From Candidatus Daviesbacteria bacterium (GTDB taxonomy: Bacteria; Patescibacteriota; Microgenomatia; Daviesbacterales; UBA10151), in NCBI GenBank assembly GCA_028687915.1, contig JAQTZF010000001.1:101969-165968 (forward strand): a DNA stretch of 64,000 bases, read 5' to 3'. A program made the translations under genes and the position numbers. Below the pieces are notes generated by a model. That model was not told the origin of the DNA, did no database searches, and was given only the letters and a program-made list of their open reading frames with translations. The stretch's first letter is position 1, and every line of letters begins with the position of its first letter. This document shows, one piece after another, positions 23,675 to 44,790 of the stretch.

Positions 23675-23801
23675 AATATGTGAATTTTACAACAACTATA
23701 CGCTAGAAGCTAATATCTGGACACTTACGTTTTGGCGAAGTAAAAGGCAAGGTTCTGCGAGCACGAGGTATAATTTTCCTTACCGAAGTACAAGCAGGTC
23801 C

Positions 23802-24356
23802 TTATTTTTGGGGATTTTCTAAGGGAAAATGTTTTTGTAAGGATGAGGCCCAGGAATCCATTAAATTTTTTGGAGCAATTTCATGAAAAGGTAAATACCT
23901 GGCAACCACTTTTTTAATCTCTTCAAGTTGATCCTTTTGAATTAAAATAATAAGCTGTCCTGGAAAACGCAGATCAGTTAATACGTTTAATATTTGATAG
24001 CCTTCTTTTTCTGAAAACCAAAAACTATTTAAATCTGTCCAAAAATAGAAATGGTCTCCAATAGTGATTCCTTGTGTAGATATTTTATATTGCACATCCT
24101 CTGGAGGGACAAAAGCTAATACATAAACCATAAAAGCAAAAGCAAATAATACTCCAATAAAAATATATTCTCTGGCAAAAAAGGAGATCAATATCAGTAA
24201 AACAAAAATAATTGCTATTGTGGTAAAAAAGGATCTGTCTCTTTTTCTAAAAGGTCTGGAAGGAGCTGTCCAGGTTAAATAAGTTCTCACGGGATCATCA
24301 TCTAAGTCCCTGATATCATTATTCTTTTCTGAAGGTTTGTGGTAAAACTCGGGCAT
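23802..24356 (-). CDS. Membrane protein, 184 aa with two central TM helices.
   Basis: Hydrophobicity only. Confidence 0.4.
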   Translation of the reverse strand: MPEFYHKPSEKNNDIRDLDDDPVRTYLTWTAPSRPFRKRDRSFFTTIAIIFVLLILISFFAREYIFIGVLFAFAFMVYVLAFVPPEDVQYKISTQGITIGDHFYFWTDLNSFWFSEKEGYQILNVLTDLRFPGQLIILIQKDQLEEIKKVVARYLPFHEIAPKNLMDSWASSLQKHFPLENPQK

Positions 24357-24416
24357 TAAAAATTATTATACAACAGACATGGATTATATATGCTATGTTT
24401 GTTACAATTAGCCACA

Positions 24417-24481
24417 AGGAGAGGTCGCATAAGACATTCCGCCTACGGCAGAAGATCTTGAGCTACTCTCCTCGTAAACTC
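24417..24481 (+). repeat. Orphan partial copy of the tRNA-Ser 5' end (AAGGAGAGGTCGCATAAG) upstream of tRNA-Ser(GCU).
   Basis: Matches the first 14-16 nt of all three plus-strand tRNA-Ser genes. The segment ends ...CTACTCTCC, which could pair with the 5' GGAGAG. Confidence 0.5.
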
Positions 24482-24568
24482 GGAGAGGTCGCATAGTGGC
24501 CTAGTGCGAATCGGTGCTAACGATTTGTCGTCGTAAGACGACCGAGGGTTCGAATCCCTCCCTCTCCG
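24482..24568 (+). tRNA. tRNA-Ser(GCU).
   Basis: GGAGAGGTCGCATAGTGGCCTAGTGCG AATCG GTGCTAA CGATT, a long variable arm, GAGGGTTCGAATCCCTC, then CCTCTCC+G. Confidence 0.75.
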
Positions 24569-24645
24569 CCTTCGATCGCCATAGCGATCTTCGGCGGACA
24601 CAGTCCGCTTGTTGTCGCAAAGGAGATTTAAGATAATTTATATAA

Positions 24646-24733
<88 letters not shown>

Positions 24734-29390: not shown

Positions 29391-31124
29391 TTATTTCTTC
29401 TCTACATTAAATAATGGACCAACAATAGAAATATTTGCCGGAGCTCTTAAATTAAAGAAATTCTTAAATTCGTTTCCTCCAAAAGATTGTGATCCACCAT
29501 CTCCTGATATAGAGACATTAGTGGTCATCCCTGAACCAAAATCAGCTGAAACAGAGACGCTTGAAATAGAATTAAATGGAGTAATGCTACGACTGCGTAG
29601 TTCCTGTTTAACCCTATCAGCATTCCATGTCTCCTGACCTGCTGGATTACCTTTATCCGGCTGGTAAAGATGCTCCTGAGTAGAAGAATCATTTCGGGAA
29701 AGTAACAGCACATTAACGATATCTGCTAGTTCATCAGATTTTAACCAGGCTGATTTACCATACTCTTTTCTGTATCCTTGTGCAGCATAAAGACAAGGAG
29801 AATCTTTATCATAAGATTTAGCCATTAAATCAGCAAAACTACTAACATCACCAGTAGTATCTCTCATTCTTTTAGTATAAGAAGTTCCCCCTCCCCAAAC
29901 ATCAGCTGAGGTAAAAGTATAACCTCCTGCAGTAGAAGCAAACCAACCTTTAATTGGCTGTCCCCCTGAACTCATAATTTTACCTTTTGTGGCTTCAACA
30001 GCTGCAATCCAGGCAGAGGAATTTAATTCTTTTTTAACAACCTGATCAGATTGACTTGGACGTACATAACCTTTTGATTTTTGGATTGCCAACCCATATG
30101 AACGTGCTGCAATAGCCTGCGCTTGTAATGCTGCAGCTGGCCAGCTAGTCGGCATTTCATAAAGGTGTTTTAAGTATTCATCTAAACTCATTGACTCATT
30201 ATTAAAAGTTTGACCAAATTCATTGGTACCATCTACTTTTATGGTTTCCCCTTCGTGACCACTGCTAAATTCAAAGTTTTGGAAATATGCCCGAAGTATA
30301 TCTTCAGCTGACTGACCGGCTTTAGCTCTGCCCAATGCACCATATTGATTCATTCCCACCCGGTGTGGAATACCAAAAGTAAAAAAAGCAAAAGCTGGTG
30401 AGAATCCAGGATTAATATTTCTATCATCAGTACAGATTAAGGGTCCAGCTCCCAAACTGGTAGGTAAATTTAAACTTCCTAACCTGGCATTAATAATTTC
30501 CTGTTGCTTGGCAGACAAACTAGCTATTTGTTTACTTAAAGTTGACTGATAATCCTTCGCCTTATTTACCTCTCCCCCAATAAAGGCTGCATTCTTATCA
30601 ACTTCAACTTGCATAGAAGCCAAACTTTTTTTATCTTTTTCAAGCTTGTCTTTTTGAGTAATTAAGTCCAGCATATCAGCTGTAACTTGAGAAATCACAC
30701 TTTGGTCCTCTTTGGTAGCTGCCTGGCGATAAGATAGCTCACGTAAAAGGTCTCCTGATCCAACACTGGAGAAAATTACAGTCAGGGGTGAAGCCATGTA
30801 AGAACGAATATAATAAGATCTGACTCTTTGCGAAAGCAATGATTGCTGAACAACTAATTTATCAGTCCTGATACTAATATCTTTTTCCTTCTGCTTAATA
30901 CTGTTTGATAAACTAACTAACTTATTTTGAATTTGAGCCAATTGAATTTTTAAAGCATTCAGTTGTCCTTCTAAAGGTTTGGTTGCTGCCACAGATTTTT
31001 CGCGGGCAGCAGATAATTCATTAATCTGTTTTTGTAAATCCTCCACTTCATCAGCACGAATAACAAAAGGCTGATAAATAAGAACTAACAATAATAAAGG
31101 AATAAGCAGAAAAACTTTTCTCAT
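29391..31124 (-). CDS. Secreted coiled-coil plus SpoIID/LytB-domain protein (cell-wall amidase enhancer-like).
   Basis: Signal peptide and a roughly 200-aa coiled-coil region with heptad-like periodicity. The downstream segment PHRVGMNQYGALGRAKAGQSAEDILRAYF matches the SpoIID signature msQyGA-gmA-G--y-eIL-hYY. Confidence 0.55.
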   Translation of the reverse strand: MRKVFLLIPLLLLVLIYQPFVIRADEVEDLQKQINELSAAREKSVAATKPLEGQLNALKIQLAQIQNKLVSLSNSIKQKEKDISIRTDKLVVQQSLLSQRVRSYYIRSYMASPLTVIFSSVGSGDLLRELSYRQAATKEDQSVISQVTADMLDLITQKDKLEKDKKSLASMQVEVDKNAAFIGGEVNKAKDYQSTLSKQIASLSAKQQEIINARLGSLNLPTSLGAGPLICTDDRNINPGFSPAFAFFTFGIPHRVGMNQYGALGRAKAGQSAEDILRAYFQNFEFSSGHEGETIKVDGTNEFGQTFNNESMSLDEYLKHLYEMPTSWPAAALQAQAIAARSYGLAIQKSKGYVRPSQSDQVVKKELNSSAWIAAVEATKGKIMSSGGQPIKGWFASTAGGYTFTSADVWGGGTSYTKRMRDTTGDVSSFADLMAKSYDKDSPCLYAAQGYRKEYGKSAWLKSDELADIVNVLLLSRNDSSTQEHLYQPDKGNPAGQETWNADRVKQELRSRSITPFNSISSVSVSADFGSGMTTNVSISGDGGSQSFGGNEFKNFFNLRAPANISIVGPLFNVEKK

Positions 31125-31224: not shown

Positions 31225-31632
31225 ATGTCCATCTTTTTAAGAACTCTTTTATTAACATTATTTTTACTTATTTTTCTCTCTTCCTCTCGCTTAGCTCTCG
31301 CTGCTGATCCTCCCGGAGGCGCAGGTGAGGCTTGTCCTAATGGAGCCTCTGGTATTAACACTGCTCTTGGATGTGTACCTACTGAACCCTCCGCCTTTAT
31401 TCAGGCTGTATCCCGTTTGCTAAGTGGTATTGGAGGAGGGATTGCCCTTCTTCTTATGATTGCTGGATCTTTTAGAATGATTACCTCTGGTGGCAATCCT
31501 GATGGTGTAAAAGCTGGTTCTGAACAATTTACCTCTGCTTTGATTGGATTATTATTTATTATTTTTGCTGTGCTACTATTAAAAGTAATCGGGGTAGATA
31601 TTTTAAATATCCCAGGATTTGGATCTATTTAA
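31225..31632 (+). CDS. VirB2/TrbC-like pilin paralog 1 (signal peptide plus two TM helices).
   Basis: Cleavable signal peptide ...LALA|AD, a Cys pair, then TM-ITSGGNPDG-amphipathic-TM. This is the same architecture as the five downstream paralogs. Confidence 0.5.
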   Translation: MSIFLRTLLLTLFLLIFLSSSRLALAADPPGGAGEACPNGASGINTALGCVPTEPSAFIQAVSRLLSGIGGGIALLLMIAGSFRMITSGGNPDGVKAGSEQFTSALIGLLFIIFAVLLLKVIGVDILNIPGFGSI

Positions 31633-31635
31633 TAT

Positions 31636-32010
31636 ATGACTAAACTACTTGCACAAGGATTAACAATACCAGGTCTAACAGGAACACCAATCCCTATTCC
31701 AGGAGTTGGTGGTGAATCCACTGTACGAGACGCCACCATAGGAGGATTCCTCACTCCTCTACTTGATGTAGTTTTCTTAATTGCTTCTGTTTTAATGTTT
31801 GTTTGGATGGTTTGGGGCATTATGCAATATATTTTTGCGGGAGGGGAAAAAGAAAAACTCGCTAAAGCCAGGTCCAGAATCACCTGGGCGATTGTTGGTT
31901 TTTGTATTGTTTTACTTTCTTTTACTATTTCACAGTATGCTAAAGAAATTTTTCCACCCAATTCAGACCCAAACAGCGAACAAACTGTAACAACCGTTTC
32001 AACACCATAA
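31636..32010 (+). CDS. VirB2/TrbC-like pilin paralog 2.
   Basis: TM-FAGGEKEKLAKARSRITWAIVGF-TM, with the shared S/AGG(E/D)KEK motif. Confidence 0.5.
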   Translation: MTKLLAQGLTIPGLTGTPIPIPGVGGESTVRDATIGGFLTPLLDVVFLIASVLMFVWMVWGIMQYIFAGGEKEKLAKARSRITWAIVGFCIVLLSFTISQYAKEIFPPNSDPNSEQTVTTVSTP

Positions 32011-32011
32011 C

Positions 32012-32317
32012 ATGACACCAACACCTGTTAATTTAAAAAGTCAATTTGGATTCGGTTATTTTGAAAATTTAGGTCAGGGTTTTAGTCTTTTAGTGATGCC
32101 TATTTTTGAAATTGCTGGCGTGGCTGTTATTATTTACCTACTTATAGGAGGCATTAAATATATGACCTCAGCTGGAGATAAAAACGCGGTGGCTTCTGCC
32201 CAGCAAATGATTACCCATGCTATTATTGGATTTATATTATTGGTATTATTATTTGTAATAGTACAATTCGTACCAGAATTTTTTGGAGCTGGTGCATTAA
32301 AGATTATAGGAAGATGA
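32012..32317 (+). CDS. VirB2/TrbC-like pilin paralog 3.
   Basis: TM-TSAGDKNAVASAQQMITHAIIGF-TM. The stop/start sits tight against the neighbouring genes. Confidence 0.5.
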   Translation: MTPTPVNLKSQFGFGYFENLGQGFSLLVMPIFEIAGVAVIIYLLIGGIKYMTSAGDKNAVASAQQMITHAIIGFILLVLLFVIVQFVPEFFGAGALKIIGR

Positions 32318-32652
32318 ATCAATTACTAGCAGCAAACCCATCAAGCGTCATAGGAACCATTACCCCTCCTCCTGGTATTAAAGATTTGGTGGATAAAGGC
32401 GGCGCTGGTGGAATTAATTCTGTTTTAACAAGTAGTATTATTTTAATCTACCAAGTGGCAATTGTTTTATTTGTCTTCATGATTGTCTTTGGTGCTTTGC
32501 AATGGATTATCTCCGGAGGAGAAAAAGAAAAAATTGCTGCTGCTCAGGGAAGAATTACCAATGCTGTTATTGGTTTGGTTATTTTAGGACTAGCCTGGGT
32601 TATTGTCTCTGTTTTAGGTAATTTTACTGGAATTAAAGTTGGGGGTGTTTAA
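32314..32652 (+). CDS. VirB2/TrbC-like pilin paralog 4.
   Basis: QWIISGGEKEKIAAAQGRITNAVIGLVILGLAWVIVSV, nearly identical to paralog 5. Confidence 0.5.
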   Translation: MNQLLAANPSSVIGTITPPPGIKDLVDKGGAGGINSVLTSSIILIYQVAIVLFVFMIVFGALQWIISGGEKEKIAAAQGRITNAVIGLVILGLAWVIVSVLGNFTGIKVGGV

Positions 32653-32701
32653 AACCAACCCAAGACTTGACAAGGGTTTTATTGTATGCAAACATTAATT
32701 C

Positions 32702-33061
32702 ATGATCCAAGAAGTTTTAGCAGCTGTTAGCCCCACCCCGATAGTAGTTGATTTAGCCAATGTTGGTGTTGGTATTCCTGCAGATACAAGTGTGGGTCTT
32801 ATCATCGGAAATGCCATCAGAATTATTATGATGATTGCCTTAATTGGTGTTTTGGCAATGTTAATTTTTGGGGCTTTTCAATGGATTGTTTCCGGAGGAG
32901 AAAAAGAAAAAGTAGCTTCTGCCAGAGGACGAATTACCAATGCTTTAATTGGATTAGCTATTTTAGGATTAGCTTTTGTAATAGTAACTGTAGCTGGAAA
33001 CTTAGTTAATATAAATATCTTTGATATTAAAATTCCAAATCTTGCTAACCCAGCTCCTTAA
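32702..33061 (+). CDS. VirB2/TrbC-like pilin paralog 5.
   Basis: QWIVSGGEKEKVASARGRITNALIGLAILGLAFVIVTV. Confidence 0.5.
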   Translation: MIQEVLAAVSPTPIVVDLANVGVGIPADTSVGLIIGNAIRIIMMIALIGVLAMLIFGAFQWIVSGGEKEKVASARGRITNALIGLAILGLAFVIVTVAGNLVNINIFDIKIPNLANPAP

Positions 33062-33120
33062 TCAATTCTGGCTACCCCTCCTTGCTTGACCTGATTTCTT
33101 CTTTTTAGTACTGTTAATAT

Positions 33121-33480
33121 ATGAAAAAATTCCTAGTCTTAATTCTTAATTCTCTTTTCTTAATGATTTATACCCCGGTTTATGCTGATAATCCGGGACC
33201 TGCAGGACCCAAACAATTACAGGAACTTTTTATGCGAATTATTAACCTGGCTGCAGAGGCTGCTTTTGTTGTTTTACTTATCATGTTAGTTTACGCCGGC
33301 ATCAAATTTTTAACTTCTGGTGGGGACCCAAAAGCAATTGGAGCAGCTGGGGGCACCATCACCTGGGCATTGTTAGGAATATTATTTATGGCAATTGGCT
33401 GGTTACTGCTACTATTAATCAAAAATTTTACAGGAGTAGATGTAACACAATTTTGTATTGGTTTTAATGGTTGCCAGTAA
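33121..33480 (+). CDS. VirB2/TrbC-like pilin paralog 6 (with signal peptide).
   Basis: Signal peptide ...PVYA|DNPGPAGP, then TM-TSGGDPKAIGAAGGTITWALLGILF-TM. Confidence 0.5.
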   Translation: MKKFLVLILNSLFLMIYTPVYADNPGPAGPKQLQELFMRIINLAAEAAFVVLLIMLVYAGIKFLTSGGDPKAIGAAGGTITWALLGILFMAIGWLLLLLIKNFTGVDVTQFCIGFNGCQ

Positions 33481-33486
33481 TTATTC

Positions 33487-35532
33487 ATGAAATATCTGCC
33501 TTTGTTTACTCTTGGACTTTTAATAAGTTGTATCTTTCTCTTTTTTCCTGCAACAATCAAAGCTGCTTGTACTAGTGAGGGTCCTGCTTGTGTCTATCCC
33601 AAACAAGATGGAGGCACTTGCCAGGGAACTTGCTCCAAAACTCAAAATATTTTTGTTTGCAGCCCATCAGCACCTGATTGTTTTACTCCTTCTACACCCT
33701 CACCTTCCCCTGGTCAACCATCAATACCCCCTCCTTCCACACCAATATCAACAAGTATAATTATTGGTGCCCAGCTTCCAGGAGCTATAACCATCAACAG
33801 ATTAATTCCTTCCCAGTACAGTTTCCAATGGATTAAATTTCAATATTCCCTGGGAAGCAGCCAAGATCTGGAGGGTTTAATAAGAAGTGCAAGGAGTGCC
33901 AGTTCAGGTGGGGGCAGAACTTATCAGGTCTTAATTTCTGTTGCCAAAAATACAGCCGGTATTGAAACTTTAAAAAACCCAGATACTTATCCACCCGAAC
34001 AGGATCCTGATTATTTTACTCATCAGTATTGTCCCTATGATGAAGAGCTGGAAACTTATAATATCCCCTACAATTGCGGCACAGATCCTGTCAGTGGAGA
34101 ACCTCAAACTTGTTATGAACAACGCAGAGCTCAACCTAAAAGCGATAATGGTTATACAAAATTTAGAGATCAAATGGAAGCCCTTGCCCCAAGATTAAGT
34201 GGTGCCTCAGCTGTTGAAGTATGGAATGAACCAAACCTGGAAGATGAATGGACACGACAAGGACTGGGGCCGGTTAATCCTGAAAACTATGTTAATTTTA
34301 TGAATTGTGGGATTAAAGGGCTTAAAAAAGGCGGATATACAGGAAAGATTATTAGCGCTGGCTTAGCTCCAAATGCTTATGCCACAAGTACTGGTCAATC
34401 AAACATGAATGATTTAACTTTTTTTAATAGCTTTATTGATAAGGGAGGATTAAATAATATTGATGCAATCGGCTGGCATGCTAATATTACTTCTGAAATA
34501 GCACCAAGTGATAATCCAGGTGATAATGGATTTAAAAGAGTCCAACATGCCCTTGGAAAAGGTAAACCTGTATGGTTAACTGAATTTGGCTGGGATAGAA
34601 GTACTTTTAGAGGTGCGGATGATTACGAAAGACGCCAGCTGCAAGCCCAATATATTGCCCAGGCTTACGAGGTAGCAGATAGGTTAGGCGGCATCGGTGC
34701 AATGTTTGTCTGGAATTTCGGCTTTACTATTGATTCCCCGGGACAACCTGAATTTATTCCCTGGGATATAGAGGGTACAATCCCCCGGGGTCTACTTTGC
34801 CAGCCAAATCCATTACGAACAACTCGTCCAGACAGAGGAGACACCACTTATGTACACGATGAATCCATTGCTGATGATCCTGTACCAGCCAAGGTAGCCG
34901 GAGTTGCTTTATTACCAAGAATAATTATTGATGAAACAACTCAAAGCGCAGCACAGGTAAATGGAACTGATGTCCAGGTTACAAAAAGTTTCTTCAGCGA
35001 ACTTTTAAACTGGCTCTCTTTTATTCAAAATTTTGCTTGTTCTACACTGGGACGAGTTCTTGGTTTAAGAGATTTTTGTACCCCTAATTTATCAGTAGGA
35101 ACAACTGAATCAGGCACACGTCCTCCCGGAAAAAATACCCAACAATTTACACTTCAAACAAATAGTTTAAGTAAAGTCTCAATCCCACAGGGAATTACGC
35201 TTATTCCGGAAGATAAAGACTGTAATTTAGGGCAAATCAAAGAGGAAGGCGTAGATATTGGGAATCAAAAATTAAATGAACTAAGTGAAACCCTGGGAAC
35301 TACCACTGGTTTTTATGGAAACAATATGGTCGATTTTAAAACCACAAATAATCCTGATTGGGAAAGGTGTATGGTAGAACGAATGAAGACAGAGAATTTA
35401 AATATAGGTAATAAATTATTTGAACAAGATAGAAGATCAGCTGATTTATATTGTAGAAAACAAGTAATGTGTAAAGGCTTATATCCAAATGGTATATGCC
35501 CATTTGAACCTACCCCTACTCCTGCCAGATAA
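33487..35532 (+). CDS. Secreted clan GH-A glycoside hydrolase (GH5-like), with a Cys-rich N-terminal module and a Pro/Ser-rich linker.
   Basis: Signal peptide. VEVWNEPNLEDEW carries the NEP acid/base motif and VWLTEFGWD carries the TE(F)G nucleophile motif, spaced about 120 aa apart as in (beta/alpha)8 GH-A enzymes. The N-terminus has a six-Cys module followed by TPSTPSPSPGQPSIPPPSTP. Confidence 0.5.
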   Translation: MKYLPLFTLGLLISCIFLFFPATIKAACTSEGPACVYPKQDGGTCQGTCSKTQNIFVCSPSAPDCFTPSTPSPSPGQPSIPPPSTPISTSIIIGAQLPGAITINRLIPSQYSFQWIKFQYSLGSSQDLEGLIRSARSASSGGGRTYQVLISVAKNTAGIETLKNPDTYPPEQDPDYFTHQYCPYDEELETYNIPYNCGTDPVSGEPQTCYEQRRAQPKSDNGYTKFRDQMEALAPRLSGASAVEVWNEPNLEDEWTRQGLGPVNPENYVNFMNCGIKGLKKGGYTGKIISAGLAPNAYATSTGQSNMNDLTFFNSFIDKGGLNNIDAIGWHANITSEIAPSDNPGDNGFKRVQHALGKGKPVWLTEFGWDRSTFRGADDYERRQLQAQYIAQAYEVADRLGGIGAMFVWNFGFTIDSPGQPEFIPWDIEGTIPRGLLCQPNPLRTTRPDRGDTTYVHDESIADDPVPAKVAGVALLPRIIIDETTQSAAQVNGTDVQVTKSFFSELLNWLSFIQNFACSTLGRVLGLRDFCTPNLSVGTTESGTRPPGKNTQQFTLQTNSLSKVSIPQGITLIPEDKDCNLGQIKEEGVDIGNQKLNELSETLGTTTGFYGNNMVDFKTTNNPDWERCMVERMKTENLNIGNKLFEQDRRSADLYCRKQVMCKGLYPNGICPFEPTPTPAR

Positions 35533-35579: not shown

Positions 35580-37295
35580 ATGTCTGCCTTCCAAAAAGTC
35601 TTCTCCTTATTATTTATTTTATTTATAGCTAACTTATTTATTTTTATTTCTCCGGCTTCTGCAGAAAGCAGTCCATGTTTAGGAGATTGGTGCCCTTTAA
35701 GTACTGCCAACTATCAAGATGAAGTTGCTACTCAAAGATTTGGAAGAAATATTTTAGTTTTTGGACATGTTGCGCTATTTGGTACAAACCCATTAGGAGG
35801 ACAAACATACAGTGAAAAAGTTGCCTATAATACTGTAAACGGTAAAATCGTAGCCTCAGCAGTTCCTGGTATTGGCCCTGGAAACATTAATGATGGCGCA
35901 TTAGCCATGGCAGGTAAAACAATAGATTCTTTATATACTCCACCTACCTCCAGCATAGAATATCTGGCTAATATAGGAGAAAATATTGGTATTGCTCCAA
36001 AATCTGCATATGCTCAAGAGATTGGTGGTTCAGGTTATAACGTAATTAGACCAGTACTAAAGCTCTGGCAAGTCACCAGAAATATTGCTTATGTGGGTTT
36101 TATTTTAGTTTTTATGGCTGCTGGGTTGATGATTATGTTCAGACAAAAACTTAATCCTCAAACAGTTATTGGTATCCAACAAGCCTTACCTGGAATAGTG
36201 GTTGGATTAATATTAGTTACATTCAGTTATTTTATTGCGTCTTTAATTGTAGATCTTTCTTTCGTGGGTGCCAGGCTAGTTGCAGGACTCTTTATCAGCA
36301 CTGGTGAAGTAAATTTTTATGGGTGTAGTGTAGTCGCCCTTGACGGAAGTTGCTCTTCTGGAGATAACGAATCAGGACTAATAAACACTTATAATAAATC
36401 TGATGCTTTTGATATGTATGGGCGAGCAGGAACCAGAGTTAGTAATATTTCTGATGTTTTTGGACAAGTATGGGGAACTCTTAGTCCATCCGCACCAACA
36501 AGCCCATCTGGGGTAGATGGACTTTTAAAAAGGCTTCAGGATGCAGCTAATGGAGCCCGATCAGGAGTATTATTTGGACCAGGAGGTGCTTTAGTCGGTG
36601 CTTTTAGCGGCTTAATTAATTATAGTATTGGCCAAGCAGCAGCTGCTGGAGTAACTGCCACACTCGCATCACTATTAATTCCATTAATTCTTGGTATTGC
36701 CTTGATGATTCAATTTGTCAAACTAATACTTTCATTAGTTATGTCTTATCTGCAAATATTGTTGATGGTTATTTTTGGACCAATCTTAATTATGGTGTCT
36801 GCAGTTCCAGGCAGAGGTGGAGCTTTAAGTTATTGGTTAAAAGGGCTCTTTGCTAATGCTTTGGTGTTCCCTGCTGTTTTTGCTGGATTTTTGTTTGCAG
36901 GATTATTATTAAATTGGAATAGTGCCAACCTAAACCTGGCTAACATGCCTATGTTTGGCGGATTACATCCTGATATTTTAAAATCAGTTTTAGCTTTTGG
37001 CGTATTATTAGGATTACCTGCTATTCCTGATATGGTCAGAGATGCTTTTGGAGTAAAAGCACCACAAGGATTCATGAAAGCAGCTATAGGAGGATTTATG
37101 GGTGGAGTTGCTGCAGGCAAAGGTGGATATAACCAAGCCATGGAAAAAACAGGTATCAGATCAGAACAACAAGCAAAACAAAAACAAGATATCGAATCGA
37201 AGCAAGCAGGTTATGTACAGGGAGCACGTCCAGTTTGGGCTCGTCCAACCATAGGCGGTAGAATAAAGTCATTCTTAGTAGATAACGCTAAATAA
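35580..37295 (+). CDS. TrbL/VirB6-like polytopic T4SS inner-membrane protein.
   Basis: Signal peptide plus a roughly 150-aa periplasmic domain, then six or more TM helices (IAYVGFILVFMAAGLMIMF, GIVVGLILVTFSYFIASLIV and others), then a Gly-rich tail. This architecture and its position in a T4SS locus match VirB6/TrbL. Confidence 0.55.
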   Translation: MSAFQKVFSLLFILFIANLFIFISPASAESSPCLGDWCPLSTANYQDEVATQRFGRNILVFGHVALFGTNPLGGQTYSEKVAYNTVNGKIVASAVPGIGPGNINDGALAMAGKTIDSLYTPPTSSIEYLANIGENIGIAPKSAYAQEIGGSGYNVIRPVLKLWQVTRNIAYVGFILVFMAAGLMIMFRQKLNPQTVIGIQQALPGIVVGLILVTFSYFIASLIVDLSFVGARLVAGLFISTGEVNFYGCSVVALDGSCSSGDNESGLINTYNKSDAFDMYGRAGTRVSNISDVFGQVWGTLSPSAPTSPSGVDGLLKRLQDAANGARSGVLFGPGGALVGAFSGLINYSIGQAAAAGVTATLASLLIPLILGIALMIQFVKLILSLVMSYLQILLMVIFGPILIMVSAVPGRGGALSYWLKGLFANALVFPAVFAGFLFAGLLLNWNSANLNLANMPMFGGLHPDILKSVLAFGVLLGLPAIPDMVRDAFGVKAPQGFMKAAIGGFMGGVAAGKGGYNQAMEKTGIRSEQQAKQKQDIESKQAGYVQGARPVWARPTIGGRIKSFLVDNAK

Positions 37296-37320: not shown

Positions 37321-39555
37321 TTAACCTTTTAATCCTTCTTCTAATGCCTTTTTTAAAGTTCCTGTTATAAACTCCCATATAAAGGATCCTGCAAACTTAA
37401 GATCTTTTCTGTGCTCAATCTTATTATTAACCATAATATCCACCACTCTTTGTACCTTTTTTGCTGTAAGATCATCAACAGCTACTTTAAAGTCCCCTGA
37501 TCCAGGAACAAGCTCTGGCCTCCCGGCTCTTATTTCTCTTTCTGCCTGTTCTGCGGCTCGCTGTTTTATCTTTAACTTCTCTTTACCAGAGAGTTTAATA
37601 TCAAAATAATCTGCCAGTACCATTTCTTTTTCCTGCATCTGAATAAATTGCGGAGCATTAGGATCAGTTAAACCAGTCAGTTTATTAACCCCTGCTAAGA
37701 TTTCATCTTCAGATAATCTTTGTTTGCCTGTCGATTCTATTTTCTGTCTAGCATATTTAATAAAGTTCATTAGTAAATGCTTTTTTGTTTCCCAAGATTC
37801 TGCTTTTGAATATTCAAAAGCATTTAAGAGTTTGCCCAATGTATCAAAATTTGGATTTAACAAAAAAGATTCAGCTGAACCGCAGAGTGCTTTTCTACCT
37901 TCCTCTGGTCCATCAACAAACCTTGAGGCCCAAAGACTCATAACTTGCGCCCCCATTGGAATAAAACTGAAATCATTACTCGAAACCACACCTTTTTCTA
38001 CTTTTCTCCTCAAAAGTCTGAAGTTAAGATGGCCCACTCTTTCACCACGATTGTTATCGTTAATCCTTAGGGCTTCATCGCTTTGTTCCTTGGGTCCACG
38101 ATCTTGATATAAGAACCTGCCCTTCTCGTCAATATAATCAGGCGTTGCATCAATTCCTGTTCTTTCTTTAAAAGACGAGTATTCTTTATAAGACAAAAAA
38201 TCAGCTGGAGCGTTTAATCTGACAGTTCTTGTCCAAAAATCACCCCCATAAATATCTACCCCCTCAAGAAGTTCAATTTGGCTTCTCAAAAGTCCGGCTT
38301 CAGCTCTAAGAAATTCCCTAAAACGCATAATTTTTGACATTGGGTAGTCACAACCATCTCTTCCTCCTGCCCAAGTCGGTTTTTCAGGACCATCATAATC
38401 AATCCCAACGGTTTTTTCATTAATTTTCCCCCTATTTACTATCAAATAGTCATACATGATTCCCCTACCAGTAAAGCGGAACATTCTTTCAGCCATGTTT
38501 GAAGCCCATTCATACTCATTTGCTTTATAACGGCTATCTACCAGCTCATCGTAATCTTCATGTCCTTTACTCTTTAAAAACTCCCGAAATACTTTGTCTT
38601 GTTCTTTCTCTGCATCCTCCTGATATTTTGAGAATTTTTGGGTTTCAGAAAGATTTTCAAACTTATCTTCCCTAGAACGATCTTCAGCTTTCTGTTTGTT
38701 TAAATAATCCTCATAATTTCCTACTACTACTGGTATTTCTGCAGGATCTATTTTTAGCTCTAAACAAGCCCTTTGAAGAGCCAAAAACTGTTGAACCTTC
38801 TTACCAAAACCACCTCTTCCTGCTTCTGAATTAGCCCTGGCGAACTCATGACCATGATCTTCATAGTATTGAAGAGCCTCAATAAAAGGATTAAATGTTT
38901 GAGGGGCCTCTCCTTCACCTCTCGCAACCTCTTCTTGCAGCGCGAATAAAACGTCGTACCAGTCCGGCGCTAAACTTAGAGCAGCTCCAGAAACATCTTT
39001 AATGCTTCCTTTATTCTCGTAAGCATTAAAGGCAGAATGAAAAGAAAGCCTGGCTTTAATTTCATTACGCATCCGGTGAGCCCAATCTTTTTGATCTTTA
39101 AACTGTTCGTCAGACAATTGTTCACCTGTAATTGGATCCTTATGTTTTATCTCTAAAGTTTCTAAGATTGCTTGTGCATTTTGAAGATCAATTTGTGTCT
39201 GTTGGGTTAAATCACTCTTGGAAATTTCTACTAATGCCAAAGTGTCTTTAATGTGTTTCTCTGCTTCTTCTCTTTTTTTTGGCCAAACAACTTCAATTGG
39301 ATATTGTTGAGGACCCATAATTTCAATCGCTGTCCAGCCCGGTGGTATATCCTGTCCTTGACGGGTAGTTTTCCGTCCTTCTATTTCTTCTCCCGCGTCT
39401 TCTCCTAATGCGGCATTAATTGCAGCAGCCGCTTCCGGACCATGTATTCTGGCTATTCTTGCTTTTTGCGCTTCAGTAAGAAGCTCTTTTTGATTTTCTC
39501 CACTGGCACCTGTTTCTGTTCCACCTGGTTCTGGCATATGTTTTTCTCTTTCCAT
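37321..39555 (-). CDS. Hypothetical large soluble protein, 744 aa, acidic, with no recognisable domain.
   Basis: Long ORF oriented against the surrounding T4SS genes. No TM helix and no motif identified. Confidence 0.5.
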   Translation of the reverse strand: MEREKHMPEPGGTETGASGENQKELLTEAQKARIARIHGPEAAAAINAALGEDAGEEIEGRKTTRQGQDIPPGWTAIEIMGPQQYPIEVVWPKKREEAEKHIKDTLALVEISKSDLTQQTQIDLQNAQAILETLEIKHKDPITGEQLSDEQFKDQKDWAHRMRNEIKARLSFHSAFNAYENKGSIKDVSGAALSLAPDWYDVLFALQEEVARGEGEAPQTFNPFIEALQYYEDHGHEFARANSEAGRGGFGKKVQQFLALQRACLELKIDPAEIPVVVGNYEDYLNKQKAEDRSREDKFENLSETQKFSKYQEDAEKEQDKVFREFLKSKGHEDYDELVDSRYKANEYEWASNMAERMFRFTGRGIMYDYLIVNRGKINEKTVGIDYDGPEKPTWAGGRDGCDYPMSKIMRFREFLRAEAGLLRSQIELLEGVDIYGGDFWTRTVRLNAPADFLSYKEYSSFKERTGIDATPDYIDEKGRFLYQDRGPKEQSDEALRINDNNRGERVGHLNFRLLRRKVEKGVVSSNDFSFIPMGAQVMSLWASRFVDGPEEGRKALCGSAESFLLNPNFDTLGKLLNAFEYSKAESWETKKHLLMNFIKYARQKIESTGKQRLSEDEILAGVNKLTGLTDPNAPQFIQMQEKEMVLADYFDIKLSGKEKLKIKQRAAEQAEREIRAGRPELVPGSGDFKVAVDDLTAKKVQRVVDIMVNNKIEHRKDLKFAGSFIWEFITGTLKKALEEGLKG

Positions 39556-39672
39556 AAACCCTCCTTTATTACTAAATTACAATCCAAACCTAAAATTGGC
39601 CTACATTATAATCTAAGGCTGAGCTTATATCAAACCCGATCTAATCGGGTTCAAATTTAGTATAGCACAGCT

Positions 39673-40899
39673 TTAATCACACTTCTCTGCAGCATCTTCT
39701 TTTTTAAGGCCACAATGCGGACATACTTCAATACCCTTGCCAGATGGAATATCTCCCTCACATCTGGGACATTTGAAAAAAGCTTCCTGAGCACCTGACC
39801 AGGTTGACATTTCTCCTCCAATTTTATTGCCTGAGAATCCACAGCTCCCACGAAGTCTTGGTGCCCCCATTGCAATTAAGCGCCTCTTCCTTTCTTCATA
39901 TGCTTCATCACCTACAGTTAATTCATTTGACTCAGTTATTTCTCCCCTAAGCAGAGCCAAAGCATAATTATCATGGGCAATCTTATTTCTTTCTGCTTCT
40001 TTAATATCCTGATTCTCTAAAGCATTTAAAACATCCCTTCTAAGGGGCTGTAGCTTATCTAAAAGCCAATGGCAACTATCTTGTTGTCTATTACTATGAT
40101 TTGGATCTAAGGCCTTTATTACGTCCATGTGAGAGTTAAACCTTTCCCCTCCTTTAAGCCAGACAGGTGTTTTTAACAAATCTACATCTGAAGAACTTTC
40201 GCTTAATTGATTTTCTATACTTAAAAACTGATTTAAAAAGTTTGTTGCTTCACTGGTAGTTAGGTGATTTCGGTATGCAATTGCATCTACCCTATCTTCT
40301 AACACCTGAAAAACAAAAGTAAAGTTGTGATCTTTAAACCCATCTTCTTTTTTTCCGGGTTCTGAATGCCAAACAGCAAAATCTCCTTTATCTATTACTC
40401 CAGCAAACAGGGGTTGCTCAATCTTTTCTTTAAAACCAATACACTCTGCTCTTGCTCTTATGCCTTGTCCTTTTTTAAAGCTTTCTAAGATATCTCCATC
40501 TTGTTCATACCCAATGGAGTAAATCTGATTTGGCAAACCATTTTCACCCCTTTTTAATCCATAACTATAGCGGGTGATATTTTCTTCAACAATGTATTCA
40601 CGGGTAAAATACTTGAGGTTTTCATCTACTCTGGTACGCCATGAGGCAATATTAGAACAATTTCGACGGGCGTAAATTTCGTCTTGAAGATTGAATGCTT
40701 GTTGTGTTTCTGTAGCCATATTTTTCCTGCTCGGGATCAAACTACGGTTATGGTTCCTGGCTTCCACAAGCAGTTCACATGCTTGTGGTTTACAGTTGCG
40801 GCACAGCTCTTGAATTTCACAAGATTCCCATTGTCGCCTACGGCGACCCGCCCCTATAAAATACATAAGTATGTTGTTTTTGTCAATTCCTATCAGCAA
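39673..40899 (-). CDS. Hypothetical protein with a C-terminal zinc-ribbon (CPRC...CPHC).
   Basis: 408-aa ORF co-oriented with and upstream of the 744-aa gene. The C-terminus reads FKCPRCEGDIPSGKGIEVCPHCGLKK. The true start may be the internal MATETQQAF. Confidence 0.4.
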   Translation of the reverse strand: MLIGIDKNNILMYFIGAGRRRRQWESCEIQELCRNCKPQACELLVEARNHNRSLIPSRKNMATETQQAFNLQDEIYARRNCSNIASWRTRVDENLKYFTREYIVEENITRYSYGLKRGENGLPNQIYSIGYEQDGDILESFKKGQGIRARAECIGFKEKIEQPLFAGVIDKGDFAVWHSEPGKKEDGFKDHNFTFVFQVLEDRVDAIAYRNHLTTSEATNFLNQFLSIENQLSESSSDVDLLKTPVWLKGGERFNSHMDVIKALDPNHSNRQQDSCHWLLDKLQPLRRDVLNALENQDIKEAERNKIAHDNYALALLRGEITESNELTVGDEAYEERKRRLIAMGAPRLRGSCGFSGNKIGGEMSTWSGAQEAFFKCPRCEGDIPSGKGIEVCPHCGLKKEDAAEKCD

Positions 40900-40983
40900 A
40901 GTACTAGATACATTAAGAAGAAACCAAATTGATCTCTTTTGAGATGCTTGCGAGTAAAGTTTTCACGGGTTATACCTATAACT

Positions 40984-42141
40984 ATGGAACCACACCCTAT
41001 CCCACAAAATGTTACATCTTTTGAATTCCACTTAGTTGGAGACATGACTCTTAAGCAGTTTGCCTATCTTGGTGCAGGCCTGGGAATGGCTTATTTATTA
41101 TATGCCACCATGTTCTTTTCTCTGCCAATTGTGGCTATCCCTTTAATTTTGGTATCTACTATATTAGGCGTGGCATTTGCTTTTGTTCCTATCTACGACC
41201 GGCCATTTGATCATTGGGTCTCAGCCTTTTTTAAAGCAGTTTATTCTCCAACTAAAGCTTCTTTTAAAATAAAATATGACCCTAAACTAAAAGTTGAACC
41301 AAACGATCCTTTCTTAAAGGATAGATTACAATTATACCTTTCAACTATGGGAATGACTGTTAATTTATGGGATAAAGCAGCAACTACTCAACCAAGAACA
41401 ACTCAAACACAATCAACCCCAACAGCCTTACAAGAAAAAGAAGTTGCTCTGGCAGAAAATTTAATTAGTAAAACTATGGATAATATTCAGACACAGACAC
41501 AACCATCAGCCTCAGAAAAATTACCAAGTCAGCAGGAATTAACTAATTTAGTAGAAATGGCAAAACAAGCACAATTATTACAGGGAAAAATTTCAGATAC
41601 AGAAAATTTAATCAAACAAATGACAAGCAGCACCAAGCAAGCAGAAGCATCACAAGTTCAATCTAGTTTAAAAGCCTTGATTCAGCAAACAGAAGAATTG
41701 TATAAAAAAACATCTACTATGAATCAAGCAACTCCTCATACAGCTCAACCTCAAACAGCAGCCATACCACAAGTACCAAGCATTCAGGCTGTTACTCAAC
41801 CAGTTGCCCCTCCAAAAGTAACTGTGGTACAACCACTGGCCCACAAAGAAACACAGGTGGTCTTAACCACCACCCCAAATATCATTAATGGAATGGTAAG
41901 TGACGAAGCTGGAAATTTCATAGAAAATGTCATTGTTATTATTCACGATAAAGAAGGTATTCCTGTTCGAGCATTAAAGACGAATAAGTTAGGTCAATTT
42001 GCCGGAGCAACTCCATTACCCCTGGGTGTCTACACCATTACTTTGGAGAAAGATAATTTTACCTTCCAAACCCTACAACTCACACTGGATAATTCAGTCT
42101 TAGGACCACTGCAAATCATCGCCAAAAAGGGAGGGCAATAG
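40984..42141 (+). CDS. PrgI-family (VirB3-like) T4SS membrane protein fused to a long Q/T-rich linker and a C-terminal carboxypeptidase-regulatory-like beta-sandwich.
   Basis: N-terminus FEFHLVGDMTLKQFAYLGAGLGMAYLLYATMFF...VAFAFVPIYDRPFDHW matches the PrgI family pattern. C-terminus IINGMVSDEAGNFIENVIVIIHDKEGIPVRALKTNKLGQFAGATPLPLGVYTITLEKDNF matches the CarboxypepD_reg pattern (GxVxDxxGxPIxxAxVxL...TDxxGxFxxxxLxxGxYTL). Start taken at MEPHPIP. Confidence 0.55.
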   Translation: MEPHPIPQNVTSFEFHLVGDMTLKQFAYLGAGLGMAYLLYATMFFSLPIVAIPLILVSTILGVAFAFVPIYDRPFDHWVSAFFKAVYSPTKASFKIKYDPKLKVEPNDPFLKDRLQLYLSTMGMTVNLWDKAATTQPRTTQTQSTPTALQEKEVALAENLISKTMDNIQTQTQPSASEKLPSQQELTNLVEMAKQAQLLQGKISDTENLIKQMTSSTKQAEASQVQSSLKALIQQTEELYKKTSTMNQATPHTAQPQTAAIPQVPSIQAVTQPVAPPKVTVVQPLAHKETQVVLTTTPNIINGMVSDEAGNFIENVIVIIHDKEGIPVRALKTNKLGQFAGATPLPLGVYTITLEKDNFTFQTLQLTLDNSVLGPLQIIAKKGGQ

Positions 42142-42143
42142 AA

Positions 42144-43043
42144 TTGACCACCAGCCAACAATTTATTCCTATTCAGGATGTTAATAAGGATTTAGTTTTT
42201 CAAAAAGATGGCAGTGTCGGCATTATTATCTCTGTTTCAGCAGTTAACTTTGCCCTGCTGTTTGAAACAGAACAAATATCTATCATTGATTCTTTTGCCG
42301 GGCTTTTAAATTCTTTATCTTTTCCTATCCAAATAGTTATCTATTCTAAAATCATGGATGTGTCATCTTATTTACACACTATTGATAATGCTTTAGCAAA
42401 ACAAACCAATCCTAACTTAAAAAAGATGACTTTAAGCTATCGCGGGTTTGTGGAAAAAAGCATTAAAGATAATAACGTGCTGGATAAAAAGTTTTATGTT
42501 TGTATTAAATTAACCTCTCTTGAGTTAGGTTTATTACCTTCTAACATGGAAGAAAAAACTAAAAAGGTGGCAACATTGCTTGAACCACGAAGAGATCATT
42601 TAATCAGGCAATTAGAGCGTTTAGGATTAAAAGCCAAACAACTATCTACAGAGGAGATTATTAAACTCTTTTATGAAATATATAATCCACCCATTACTGC
42701 TTCTGTTGCCCTGCCTGTACAAAGCAATATTAAATCTAGCCCCTTACTGGAAATTAATAAACCAGAAGTAATTCCTCAAACCCCTAAAGTAGAGGATAAT
42801 TTACCACCAAAACTGCGACCAATTAGAGCTAATTTGACTCAGCAAGTATCAACAACAGTAGTTCCACCTGCTCCTACTCCTGCACAAGCACCAATTACAC
42901 CACCAGTCATTCCAAAACCACCCACTCCGGTTGCTGCTCCTTTAACTAACCTATCTCCTATCACAGCAGCTAATTTAACATCTAATGCTTCTACTTTTAC
43001 ATCTCCTTTTGTGGTTGAAGAACTACCTGATGACGGACCCTAA
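42144..43043 (+). CDS. T4SS protein resembling the N-terminal domain of VirB4/CagE/TrbE, possibly the detached N-terminal part of a split VirB4, with a Pro/Thr-rich C-terminal tail.
   Basis: FIPIQDVNKDLVFQKDGSVGIIISVSAVNFALLFETEQISIIDSFAGLLNSLSFPIQIV follows the VirB4 N-terminal domain pattern (F-p--i-dg-i--kdGs-g-vl-v---n--l-s--E---l---f---Ln-L--piQi). The last 80 aa are low-complexity P/T/A. Confidence 0.4.
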   Translation: MTTSQQFIPIQDVNKDLVFQKDGSVGIIISVSAVNFALLFETEQISIIDSFAGLLNSLSFPIQIVIYSKIMDVSSYLHTIDNALAKQTNPNLKKMTLSYRGFVEKSIKDNNVLDKKFYVCIKLTSLELGLLPSNMEEKTKKVATLLEPRRDHLIRQLERLGLKAKQLSTEEIIKLFYEIYNPPITASVALPVQSNIKSSPLLEINKPEVIPQTPKVEDNLPPKLRPIRANLTQQVSTTVVPPAPTPAQAPITPPVIPKPPTPVAAPLTNLSPITAANLTSNASTFTSPFVVEELPDDGP

Positions 43044-44790
43044 ACAAAAACAATTAACTTTTGAAGATGCGGTTGCCCCCTATGAAGTAGAGGTTGATTT
43101 TTCGTTCCTAAAAATTAACCACCGCTATTTCCGTTCCTTTTTTGTATCTTCTTATCCGCGCTATGTTGAACCAAATTGGCTGGAGCCATTAATTTCATTT
43201 GAGCACTCAATGGTTTTATCAATGTTTATCTACCCTACCAGTTCAGCTGGCATTTTGGATGATTTAAAAAGAAAGATTGCTGAAATGGAAGCCACTATTC
43301 AAACTGATCAGGAAAGGGGGAGAATTGTTAATCCTACGGTTACAGTAGCTTTGGATGATGCCAAAGCATTACAGGAGCAACTTGCCAAAGGATCGGAAAG
43401 ATTTTTCCAGTTTAGTTTATATATTAATGTGCCCTCAGACTCTATTGAAGAATTAAATAATAAGTCACAGCTGGTTCAATCTACACTAGGCAGTATTTCT
43501 ATTGATTCTCATCCACTTTATTTACAAATGAAAGAAGGGTTTGAAAGCACACTGCCAATTGGACAAGATCCTTTATATCTTGCCCACAATATGGACACTA
43601 CCTCACTTGCCACCACATTTCCTTTTGTTTCCTCAGAGCTAACCTCACCAGATGGAGTTATTTATGGCATTAATGCCCATAACGATTCTTTAATTATTTT
43701 TGATAGGTTTAGCCAGGAAAACGCAAATTCTGTAGTTTTTGCAACAGCCGGTGCCGGTAAATCATATTTTGTAAAATTAGAATCTCTCCGTTCTTTAATG
43801 TTGGGCACAGAAGTAATTATTATTGACCCGGAAAAAGAATATGTAGATTTAGCCAAAGCTGTAGGGGGAGATTATATAAATTTTTCCACCACTTCACCTG
43901 TAAAGATTAATCCTTTTGACTTACCAGATATTTTAAATAGCGAAGAAGATGAATTAGGAAGAAAGATTTTATCTTTAACTGGATTTTTACGCTTGGTTTT
44001 AGGAGACCTCACTGCCAACGAAGTAGCAGTTTTAGATAGAGCCTTAAATGCCACTTATAAGTTAAAGGGGATTACAGCAAATGTTTTTAATAAAACAGAT
44101 CCTGCCAGTAAAATAAAAGTTGAGTCCCCGTTGATGGAAGATTTATATAAAGTGCTTATTGGCATGGAGGACAGCCTGGCGGGAAGCCTAGCTATAAGAT
44201 TGGAAAGGTTTATCAAAGGTTCTTTGGCTGGTATTTTTTCTGCTCAATCAAATATTAATATTCAAAACCCTTTTACTGTCTTTTCTGTTCGTGAATTACC
44301 AGACCAGTTAAGACCATTAGCTATGTATTTAATCCTTGATTATATTTGGACAAAAATCCGCAGAGAAATTAAAAAAAGGATTTTAGTGGTGGATGAGGCT
44401 TGGTATATGATGAAATACCCTGATTCTGCTTCTTTTTTAGTAGAAATGGTTAAAAGATCTAGGAAATATTACCTTGGAGTAACCACTATTAGCCAGGATG
44501 TAGAGGATTTCCTAGGACAAGACCGGGGCAAAGAAATCATTTCCAACTCAGCAATGCAGATATTATTAAAACAAGCACCTGTGTCTATTGAAAAAATAGG
44601 CGCTGTTTTTAATTTATCTCAGGGTGAAAAAAGACTGCTAACCACGGCTGGAGTAGGACAGGGGTTGTTTTTTGCTGGAAATGTACACATTGCCATGTCT
44701 ATTGTCGCCTCAGAAGAGGAGCATATCTTAATCACAACAAACCCCCGAGAAATATTGGAACGCCAGGAAAAAGAAAAAGGAGTTAGCTAA
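43030..44790 (+). CDS. virB4: VirB4-family T4SS ATPase (TraC/TrbE/PrgJ-like).
   Basis: N-terminal INHRYFRSFFVSSYPRYVEPNWLEPL, the classic VirB4 segment; Walker A ATAGAGKSYFVK; Walker B ILVVDEAW; C-terminal NPFDLP and TISQDVEDF motifs. Start taken at MTDPKQ (ATG 43030), overlapping the previous ORF by 14 nt. Confidence 0.8.
   Translation: MTDPKQKQLTFEDAVAPYEVEVDFSFLKINHRYFRSFFVSSYPRYVEPNWLEPLISFEHSMVLSMFIYPTSSAGILDDLKRKIAEMEATIQTDQERGRIVNPTVTVALDDAKALQEQLAKGSERFFQFSLYINVPSDSIEELNNKSQLVQSTLGSISIDSHPLYLQMKEGFESTLPIGQDPLYLAHNMDTTSLATTFPFVSSELTSPDGVIYGINAHNDSLIIFDRFSQENANSVVFATAGAGKSYFVKLESLRSLMLGTEVIIIDPEKEYVDLAKAVGGDYINFSTTSPVKINPFDLPDILNSEEDELGRKILSLTGFLRLVLGDLTANEVAVLDRALNATYKLKGITANVFNKTDPASKIKVESPLMEDLYKVLIGMEDSLAGSLAIRLERFIKGSLAGIFSAQSNINIQNPFTVFSVRELPDQLRPLAMYLILDYIWTKIRREIKKRILVVDEAWYMMKYPDSASFLVEMVKRSRKYYLGVTTISQDVEDFLGQDRGKEIISNSAMQILLKQAPVSIEKIGAVFNLSQGEKRLLTTAGVGQGLFFAGNVHIAMSIVASEEEHILITTNPREILERQEKEKGVS

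Follow-up and report, generated by a model that had tools for sequence, protein, structure and literature searches.

Exported glycan-cleaving enzymes are encoded in the gene clusters of type IV secretion systems (T4SS) of both diderm bacteria (VirB1) and monoderm bacteria (PrgK of pCF10, TraG of pIP501 and TcpG of pCW3), and the monoderm T4SS hydrolases are modular. Enzymes of the VirB1/PrgK type adopt SLT, GH73, CHAP/NlpC-P60 or M23 folds and cut peptidoglycan. In the X-Tfe effectors of Xanthomonas, a conserved C-terminal domain (XVIPCD) is combined with variable N-terminal enzymes, including glycan hydrolases; X-Tfes are made without a signal peptide, and VirD4 recruits them in the cytoplasm. 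Here we analyze a 64,000-nucleotide stretch of DNA from a Candidatus Daviesbacteria bacterium (contig JAQTZF010000001.1, positions 101,969 to 165,968; hereafter the window), an ultra-small symbiont that belongs to the Microgenomates group of Patescibacteria, and a gene in it that encodes a predicted glycosidase within a T4SS/pilus locus. The role of the T4SS in Patescibacteria is unknown (PMC11665869), and according to the literature VirB1, VirB5 and adhesins of the canonical kind are for the most part absent from their T4SS loci. An NCBI record with the identical protein, from a 1.10-Mb contig of a Candidatus Daviesbacteria metagenome-assembled genome (MAG), is annotated as a hypothetical protein.

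The window protein is likewise a predicted exported glycan-cleaving enzyme, but it differs from the VirB1/PrgK-type hydrolases in its fold, a barrel of glycoside hydrolase (GH) clan GH-A, and it has no Pfam matches to SLT, CHAP or M23. Its top structural match is PslG of Pseudomonas aeruginosa (CAZy family GH39; PDB 4zn2, 5bx9, 9g17), which is encoded in a polysaccharide-synthesis operon, whereas the window gene lies in a T4SS/pilus locus. We propose that the product of this gene serves a Microgenomates-type T4SS or pilus as a modular, Sec-exported accessory protein, which would be docked by its C-terminal domain and whose glycosidase would cut a non-peptidoglycan host polysaccharide; we put the probability of this reading at about 0.55. 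What is new here is that a T4SS-associated glycan hydrolase has a PslG-like GH-A barrel where a lysozyme-type fold is usual, and that this barrel is an optional cassette on a C-terminal domain which is specific to the locus and had not been described before. Neither the clan nor the mechanism is unusual, the family has few members, and the biological target proposed here is a prediction.

Domain architecture of the window protein

Proteins of this family are predicted to consist of a signal peptide, a Cys module, a linker, an optional GH cassette and a C-terminal domain. In the window these elements and their landmarks are the following:

33487..35532, + strand: glycosidase open reading frame (ORF), ATG start, 681 aa
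33487..33564, + strand: signal peptide, residues 1-26, MKYLPLFTLGLLISCIFLFFPATIKA, the sole hydrophobic segment, with the AxA-like end IKA↓A
33565..33681, + strand: six-Cys module, residues 27-65, with Cys 28, 35, 45, 49, 58 and 65
33682..33756, + strand: Pro/Ser/Thr-rich linker, residues 66-90, with 9 Pro, 7 Ser and 4 Thr among 25 residues (80%)
33757..34776, + strand: clan GH-A (β/α)8 catalytic core, PslG-like, residues 91-430
33979..34146, + strand: family-specific barrel insertion, residues 165-220 (YCPYDEEL… β-hairpin, 3 Cys)
34228..34230, + strand: codon GAA of E248, the predicted general acid/base (WNEPN, just after β4)
34582..34584, + strand: codon GAA of E366, the predicted nucleophile (TEFGW, β7)
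34777..35529, + strand: C-terminal 'slot' domain, residues 431-681, mostly helical

The N-terminus probably carries a cleavable Sec signal, since residues 1-25 form the only hydrophobic stretch in the whole 681-residue protein and this stretch terminates in IKA↓A. Equivalent N-termini are present across all homologues in a 23-member alignment. An earlier reading of the DNA, made from its letters and their translations (the sequence-only reading), had described the product as a secreted clan GH-A glycosidase with a Cys-rich N-terminal module and a PS-rich linker. Secretion is borne out by the signal peptide together with the lack of any other membrane segment, and the N-terminal description is accurate, with six Cys in residues 27-65 and 20 Pro, Ser or Thr among the 25 residues that follow. 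A lipoprotein signal was considered and rejected: although LISC (residues 12-15) could pass for a loose lipobox, it is buried midway along the hydrophobic core, and homologues do not conserve Cys15.

The six-Cys module has no Pfam or PDB matches and is modelled by AlphaFold with pLDDT below 50, and the linker is left unmodelled. The module was found in P0002-P0005 of our protein set and in the GH-less protein P0090, and is missing from most of the remaining members. The sequence-only reading had suggested a binding module; such a role is putative, and the module occurs also in relatives that have no glycosidase.

Catalytic core and its family assignment

In the AlphaFold models, which were built on shallow alignments of 23 and 26 sequences, residues 90-430 form a (β/α)8 barrel with a pLDDT of ~90. 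N247-E248-P249 directly follows strand 242-244 (β4), and E366 is located within strand 362-369 (β7), so that the NEP motif (residues 247-249) and the TEFG motif (residues 365-368) are separated by 118 residues. A TIM barrel, an acid/base Glu in an NEP motif after β4 and a nucleophile Glu in β7 are the characteristics of clan GH-A; all of them were found, and the assignment of the core to this clan, already made in the sequence-only reading, is certain.

PslG was the top Foldseek match of the AlphaFold core (E=8.5e-12), with an identity of only ~16% in the structural alignment. Among PDB sequences the window protein alone retrieved PslG weakly (E=0.018), and a profile of the 23-member family retrieved it with E=8.9e-9, along with GH39 xylosidases (E=1.5e-3). 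The profile aligns E248 and E366 to positions 139 and 250 of the PslG chain (WNEPN and TEWGW), which correspond to E165 and E276; the 111-residue spacing of the two aligned Glu in PslG is that of E165 and E276. The E165/E276 double mutant of PslG is catalytically inactive and is used as the standard inactive control (PMC4928890). Both E248 and E366 are invariant in the 23-homologue alignment and then in all 33 GH-bearing members, as are the Asn-Glu-Pro motif and the β6 His. Invariance in homologues and alignment to the catalytic pair of PslG indicate that NEP and TEFG, which had been proposed earlier as the catalytic motifs, are not chance matches.

Identity to relatives reaches 47-79% in the GH core, compared with 25-51% in the C-terminal domain of the same proteins; the core is under purifying selection and evolves far slower than the rest of the protein. 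Since E248 and E366 are intact, invariant and correctly placed, the economical reading is that the protein is an active retaining β-glycosidase, as would be expected from the predicted active site. The slot protein of other loci carries Cys-rich domains that look non-enzymatic, and adhesion may be a common theme, so one could picture a catalytically silent, lectin-like barrel that acts in carbohydrate binding or adhesion only. Across 33 sequences no exchange is seen at either Glu, at the preceding Asn or at the β6 His, and no part of the protein evolves more slowly than the core, so that we regard such a barrel as extremely improbable.

The earlier reading had named the lack of a CAZy family as an outcome that would refute it, and here the outcome is divided: there is no doubt about the clan, yet not one family model is passed by the window protein. 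It has no NCBIfam matches and a single sub-threshold Pfam match, to PF11790 (Glyco_hydro_cc, GH128; 15.9 bits, E=0.0096, gathering threshold 21). This model is matched above its threshold by the orthologue in locus L004 (26.7 bits) and at E≤0.01 by 18 of the 23 family members. The structural match to the GH128/PF11790 β-1,3-glucanases (PDB 6uax) is no better than those to GH53, GH26, GH1 and GH10. For PF01229 (GH39) the window protein gives no match at E≤1, whereas seven of 23 relatives match it (best E=5e-5), and for PF00150 (GH5, Cellulase) it gives no match, with six of 23 relatives matching (best E=5.9e-7). Thus, no CAZy-type family fits alone; the margin by which GH39/PslG comes closest is slight, and every Pfam threshold lies above the scores of the window protein. 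By these profile comparisons the core appears to be a distant relative of GH39 and not a demonstrable member of it. Lying between GH39, GH128 and GH5, it may deserve a CAZy family or subfamily of its own.

Several features separate the window protein from PslG. PslG has neither the N-terminal Cys module and linker nor the 250-residue C-terminal domain, and the Cys-containing hairpin at residues 165-220 is a feature of the window-protein family. In the alignment this insertion is present in P0002-P0016 and missing from the short forms P0017-P0023; it is modelled as a β-hairpin with strands 190-199 and 206-214. The likeness to PslG raises the thought that the enzyme trims or releases an exopolysaccharide made by the bacterium itself, for example to detach cells or free pili. 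We consider this highly unlikely, because glycosyltransferase and polysaccharide-export genes are absent from the annotated genes of the locus, in the window as well as in related loci, and because similarity to PslG is as remote as 16% identity in structural alignments.

A scan of a genome collection, whose returned loci did not include the source genome, yielded one T4SS-linked orthologue among species representatives (L004), and the T4SS-linked form looks rare among them. The other 79 loci (L005-L083) are from Chloroflexota and contain the core only, at 25-33% identity and often with LysM repeats. L004 (CAZZEB010000007.1) is a T4SS locus of the typical Patescibacteria kind, with six PF18895 pilins, a protein with GH core plus C-terminal domain, and a PrgI-like gene; its MAG is labelled 'uncultured Gammaproteobacteria bacterium' and is probably mis-binned or mislabelled.

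Chloroflexota hold the nearest relatives of the core outside Patescibacteria, hundreds of proteins with 542 confirmed stretches that are 25-33% identical over ~200 residues. LysM repeats are common among them, as are annotations with PF00150 or PF02449, and they are named inconsistently (PslG, GH5 cellulase, 'GH35 xylanase', YaaH). They may form a separate, so far uncharacterised GH-A group that is associated with the wall.

The C-terminal slot domain and the optional glycosidase cassette

The sequence-only reading had placed the gene between a pilin array and VirB6. Its immediate neighbours are:

31225..33480, + strand: six VirB2-type T4SS pilin genes, all above the PF18895 gathering threshold
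35580..37295, + strand: polytopic membrane protein, VirB6/PrgH-like, 571 aa, ~7 hydrophobic segments

The upstream part of that placement is correct, the six genes being PF18895 pilins; for the downstream protein, similarity to VirB6 is plausible but not proven, with sub-threshold matches to NF045848 (E=1.6e-4) and NF045889, which are conjugal-transfer transmembrane proteins of mycoplasma integrative and conjugative elements (ICE). The gaps flanking the glycosidase gene are 6 and 47 bp, and from these short gaps and the common orientation of the genes we infer co-transcription.

The ~250-residue domain at the C-terminus (hereafter C-domain) went unremarked in the earlier reading of this ORF. 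It has the conserved motifs CQPN, GKNT, PExKDCN, GFYG, NLN…F.QD.R.PD and YPxGI.P, as well as conserved Cys. An exhaustive profile search of 1.84 billion representative proteins found the C-domain in 52 representatives only, always at the C-terminus; this search was more informative than a word-index homologue search with the C-domain alignment, which recovered a single protein. The model of the C-domain is of moderate confidence, and a structure search matched it to no known fold.

We collected 65 related proteins, of which 28 contain both GH core and C-domain and 31 have the C-domain without the GH core; the remaining six are short GH forms with a tail too divergent to be scored as C-domain. 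Proteins with the C-domain follow the pilin array in the 11 loci that include upstream DNA. The GH-bearing form occupies the same slot in the window and in seven further loci (eight in total), including one at 26% identity, and in loci of sufficient length an orthologue of the VirB6-like gene is immediately downstream of the slot gene. The earlier reading had suggested checking co-conservation with the T4SS locus; the slot is indeed kept in every locus examined, but the GH core is optional.

The GH-less proteins have signal peptides and are encoded by complete genes, which, wherever upstream DNA is available, stand directly after the pilins. P0131 (224 aa) and P0094 (244 aa) are positioned in this way, and P0096 (545 aa) follows six pilins and lies upstream of a VirB6-like gene, with a MazE antitoxin gene intervening. 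Downstream of P0127 are genes of the sizes usual for the locus; its contig begins at the gene, so that the pilin side is not visible. In locus L087, the slot protein resembles the window protein through the C-domain alone (BLAST), and the neighbouring genes compared, from the 609-aa protein to VirB4, are all orthologous except two reverse-strand unknowns. The closest comparison is given by P0090, the sister of the window protein in the C-domain tree: its signal peptide, Cys module and Pro/Thr linker match those of the window protein and lead straight into the C-domain, so that precisely the GH core is missing, and its gene adjoins an orthologue of pilin 6 with 78% identity. In the same tree, GH-less forms are nested within the GH-bearing clade. 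Other members have a conserved Cys-rich domain of ~190 residues in place of the cassette, for which a profile search of PDB sequences gave no detectable relatives. Therefore, what defines the gene located between the pilins and the VirB6-like gene is its C-domain rather than its glycosidase.

This distribution bears on whether the enzyme is a nutritional exo-enzyme that releases fermentable sugars and is located in a T4SS locus without functional reason. Patescibacteria have been reported to possess numerous glycoside hydrolases thought to feed fermentation, and galactanases, xylanases, glucanases and mannanases are among the enzymes with the nearest folds. However, the core in this form occurs only fused or adjacent to the C-domain and keeps to one slot even where identity drops to 26%, only ~60 such proteins were found among the billions searched, and neither sugar transporters nor catabolic genes are among the annotated neighbours, which makes a nutritional role highly improbable.

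The slot protein can be compared with two further groups of T4SS-associated proteins. Like X-Tfes, it combines a conserved secretion-linked C-terminal domain with interchangeable N-terminal modules; in contrast to X-Tfes, slot proteins have Sec signal peptides, and we detected no similarity in sequence or fold. The likeness to the pilus-tip proteins VirB5/TraC consists in Sec export, a largely helical composition, a length of ~220-250 residues and a position between pilin and VirB6 genes, and the stand-alone C-domain proteins of 224 and 244 aa are of VirB5/TraC size. Neither the VirB5/TraC helical-bundle fold nor sequence homology to these proteins was found for the C-domain. A bolder and more doubtful proposal is that the C-domain is a previously unrecognised, fast-evolving component of the Microgenomates T4SS/pilus, perhaps an adaptor or tip, that displays interchangeable host-interaction 'warheads'. 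These would be carried on the flexible linker, as a PslG-like glycosidase here and as the 190-residue Cys-rich domain or a small Cys knot elsewhere.

Two slot proteins have additional segments. The GH-bearing P0013 (L001, 9489-11594) contains an extra insertion of ~120 residues between the GH core and the C-domain, and this insertion holds most of the 20 Cys found in the C-terminal part of the protein, which is another sign of the shuffling of Cys-rich modules in the slot-protein family. P0127 (L090, 88-1890) has a 146-residue C-terminal extension in which residues 519-560 read 'CESGFNP…AWGLFQM'. An SLT module at this place, suspected by eye, is no more than a lead, as only sub-threshold matches to SLT (E=0.042) and phage lysozyme (E=0.023) and no PDB sequence match were obtained; were it true, the slot protein would be able to carry a lysozyme-type module too. 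An M23 module likewise suspected in P0129, which has neither a Pfam nor a PDB phmmer match, is a lead of the same kind.

Proposed role and the host-versus-self question

In the proposed mechanism, the C-domain would dock the protein at the T4SS, the pilus or the surrounding envelope, the flexible linker would tether the glycosidase at the machine, and the enzyme would cleave a β-linked non-peptidoglycan polysaccharide located between the symbiont machine and the target membrane. The target would more probably be a polymer of the host surface, such as a capsule, an exopolysaccharide or a secondary cell-wall glycan, rather than the symbiont's own wall. The preference for a host polymer is moderate, not strong, and has three grounds. 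First, no peptidoglycan hydrolase is known to us from any family of clan GH-A. Second, the cassette comes and goes and is swapped with Cys-rich domains, as a host-range determinant might be but an assembly factor would hardly be. Third, a separate peptidoglycan enzyme is kept beside loci with or without the cassette, which in the window is the following gene:

29391..31124, - strand: SpoIID/LytB-domain protein, PF08486 E=3.5e-11, TIGR02669 E=5.7e-33

This gene is divergent from the pilin array, and its product combines a signal or anchor segment with a long N-terminal coiled coil that gives weak PcsB-CC and EnvC-like matches. The gene is kept at the same position in L001, L002, L003 and L087, the last of which includes a GH-less slot protein, and it is conserved in every locus with the upstream side recovered, whether or not the cassette is present. 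Judged by its domain content and position, the SpoIID/LytB protein is a candidate for the peptidoglycan-remodelling (VirB1-like) partner of the T4SS.

The same observations help to judge an analogue of VirB1, PrgK and TraG, that is, an enzyme that opens the symbiont's own wall, or a wall-associated or S-layer glycan, for assembly of the pilus or channel. Dedicated wall hydrolases are canonical T4SS components, the window gene is embedded among structural genes for the pilins and the VirB6-like protein, and the distant Chloroflexota relatives of the core often have peptidoglycan-binding LysM repeats. Canonical VirB1 homologues in Patescibacteria are mostly not associated with virB4, and the authors of that survey suggested substitution by other glycosidases (PMC12102498). 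An analogue of this kind is nevertheless unlikely in our view: the enzyme is folded as a TIM barrel of clan GH-A, and the neighbouring SpoIID/LytB enzyme, present in every locus seen, is a better candidate for the task. Furthermore, the gene occupies the T4SS slot in eight GH-bearing loci, as a VirB1/PrgK-type component would, yet the GH core is missing from orthologous loci with the same pilins, VirB6-like protein and VirB4, which is not expected if it were essential for assembly. In being dispensable in sister loci, the window glycosidase differs from the VirB1/PrgK-type hydrolases.

Several points weigh against the host-polysaccharide reading of the slot protein or limit how firmly it can be held. 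The argument for host over self is indirect, C-domain docking is deduced from gene position only, and activity, substrate and localisation of the enzyme are all predictions. Many of the related loci are Logan assemblies from neighbouring run accessions (SRR223879xx-SRR223880xx), possibly from one study; the counts of proteins with and without the GH core are not a population estimate, and some contigs are 1.5-2.4 kb long, so that mis-assembly is possible. Scans for promoters and terminators yielded no more matches than expected from shuffled sequence.

If the bolder proposal of interchangeable warheads is true, the glycosidase would be the first known case of an enzyme that a Patescibacteria T4SS physically carries in order to breach the polysaccharide coat of a host, and it would offer a biochemical handle on the role of an essential but functionally obscure machine. 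A strongly conserved and apparently active glycosidase in a locus-specific protein is a candidate for the missing envelope-breaching function. Its soluble domain could be expressed and screened without culturing the organism, and the natural variants with and without GH core in sister loci could be correlated with host range.

Organization of the T4SS locus

The window contains a complete T4SS neighbourhood of the Patescibacteria type. The locus begins on the - strand with genes for SmpB, a 609-aa protein, a bPH-domain protein and the SpoIID/LytB protein, which are followed on the + strand by the six pilins, the glycosidase gene and the VirB6-like gene. Two genes for soluble proteins then lie on the - strand, and the PrgI/VirB3-like, TraC-like and VirB4 ATPase genes on the + strand are succeeded by those for a 573-aa protein and two Big_5 proteins, also on the + strand. 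The second half of the locus comprises:

37321..40899, - strand: two soluble proteins between the VirB6-like and PrgI-like genes, 744 aa (37321-39555) and 408 aa (39673-40899)
40939-42141, + strand: PrgI/VirB3-like, PF12666 E=1.1e-7
42144-43043, + strand: TraC-like VirB4 N-domain protein, 299 aa, PF11130 E=7e-4
42985-44790, + strand: VirB4 ATPase, 601 aa, PF19044 E=1.7e-24, AAA_10, DUF87

BLAST revealed ordered, gene-by-gene orthology with related loci from SmpB to VirB4, in which the PrgI-like, TraC-like and VirB4 genes keep the same order. VirB4 together with a TraC/TrsD-like protein, a PrgI/VirB3-like protein, the PF18895 array and the VirB6-like protein are the components by which the T4SS of the Patescibacteria clade (MPF-FATA-like) is recognized, and this repertoire of the window matches the Patescibacteria T4SS described in the 2025 survey PMC12102498. 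The survey contains no mention of the slot-gene family.

The pilins each have two or three hydrophobic segments, one of which is possibly a signal peptide. Within the array the paralogues are only distantly related to one another, whereas all six have 1:1 orthologues in the same order in L001, L003 and L087 (41-84% identity, BLAST). This combination argues that the array is ancient and ordered rather than a recent tandem amplification. The first pilin, 135 aa long in the window, has a large N-terminal extension in other loci (257-488 aa).

VirB4 appears to be split, as the gene of the TraC-like protein overlaps the start of that of the ATPase-domain protein by 59 nt; the same arrangement is seen in L001, L003, L086 and L087. 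The TraC-like protein corresponds to the TrsD-like partner noted in PMC12102498.

The 744-aa and 408-aa proteins have no hydrophobic segments and no matches above threshold to Pfam or NCBIfam families. L003 has orthologues of both, L001 has a weak match to the 744-aa protein only (BLAST), and other loci have reverse-strand genes of similar size at this position. The 408-aa protein ends in CPRC…CPHC, which is zinc-ribbon-like, with a weak match to Prok-RING (E=0.039).

Toxin-antitoxin genes are inserted into the otherwise orthologous T4SS loci L087 (4029-4516, 9673-9879) and L088; in L087 HicA and a partner precede the pilin array, and the slot gene is separated from the VirB6-like gene by a MazE-like antitoxin. 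In the window, ORFs antisense to the pilin, glycosidase and VirB6-like genes (31629-32024 on the - strand, 33291-33560, 33970-34173, 34665-34847 and 36830-37141) are in all likelihood spurious, as homology does not support them. Four tRNA-Ser genes (anticodons GGA, CGA, GCT and TGA) and one tRNA-Arg(GCG) gene are clustered within 3.6 kb at 21126-24733, only a few kb away from SmpB and the T4SS genes.

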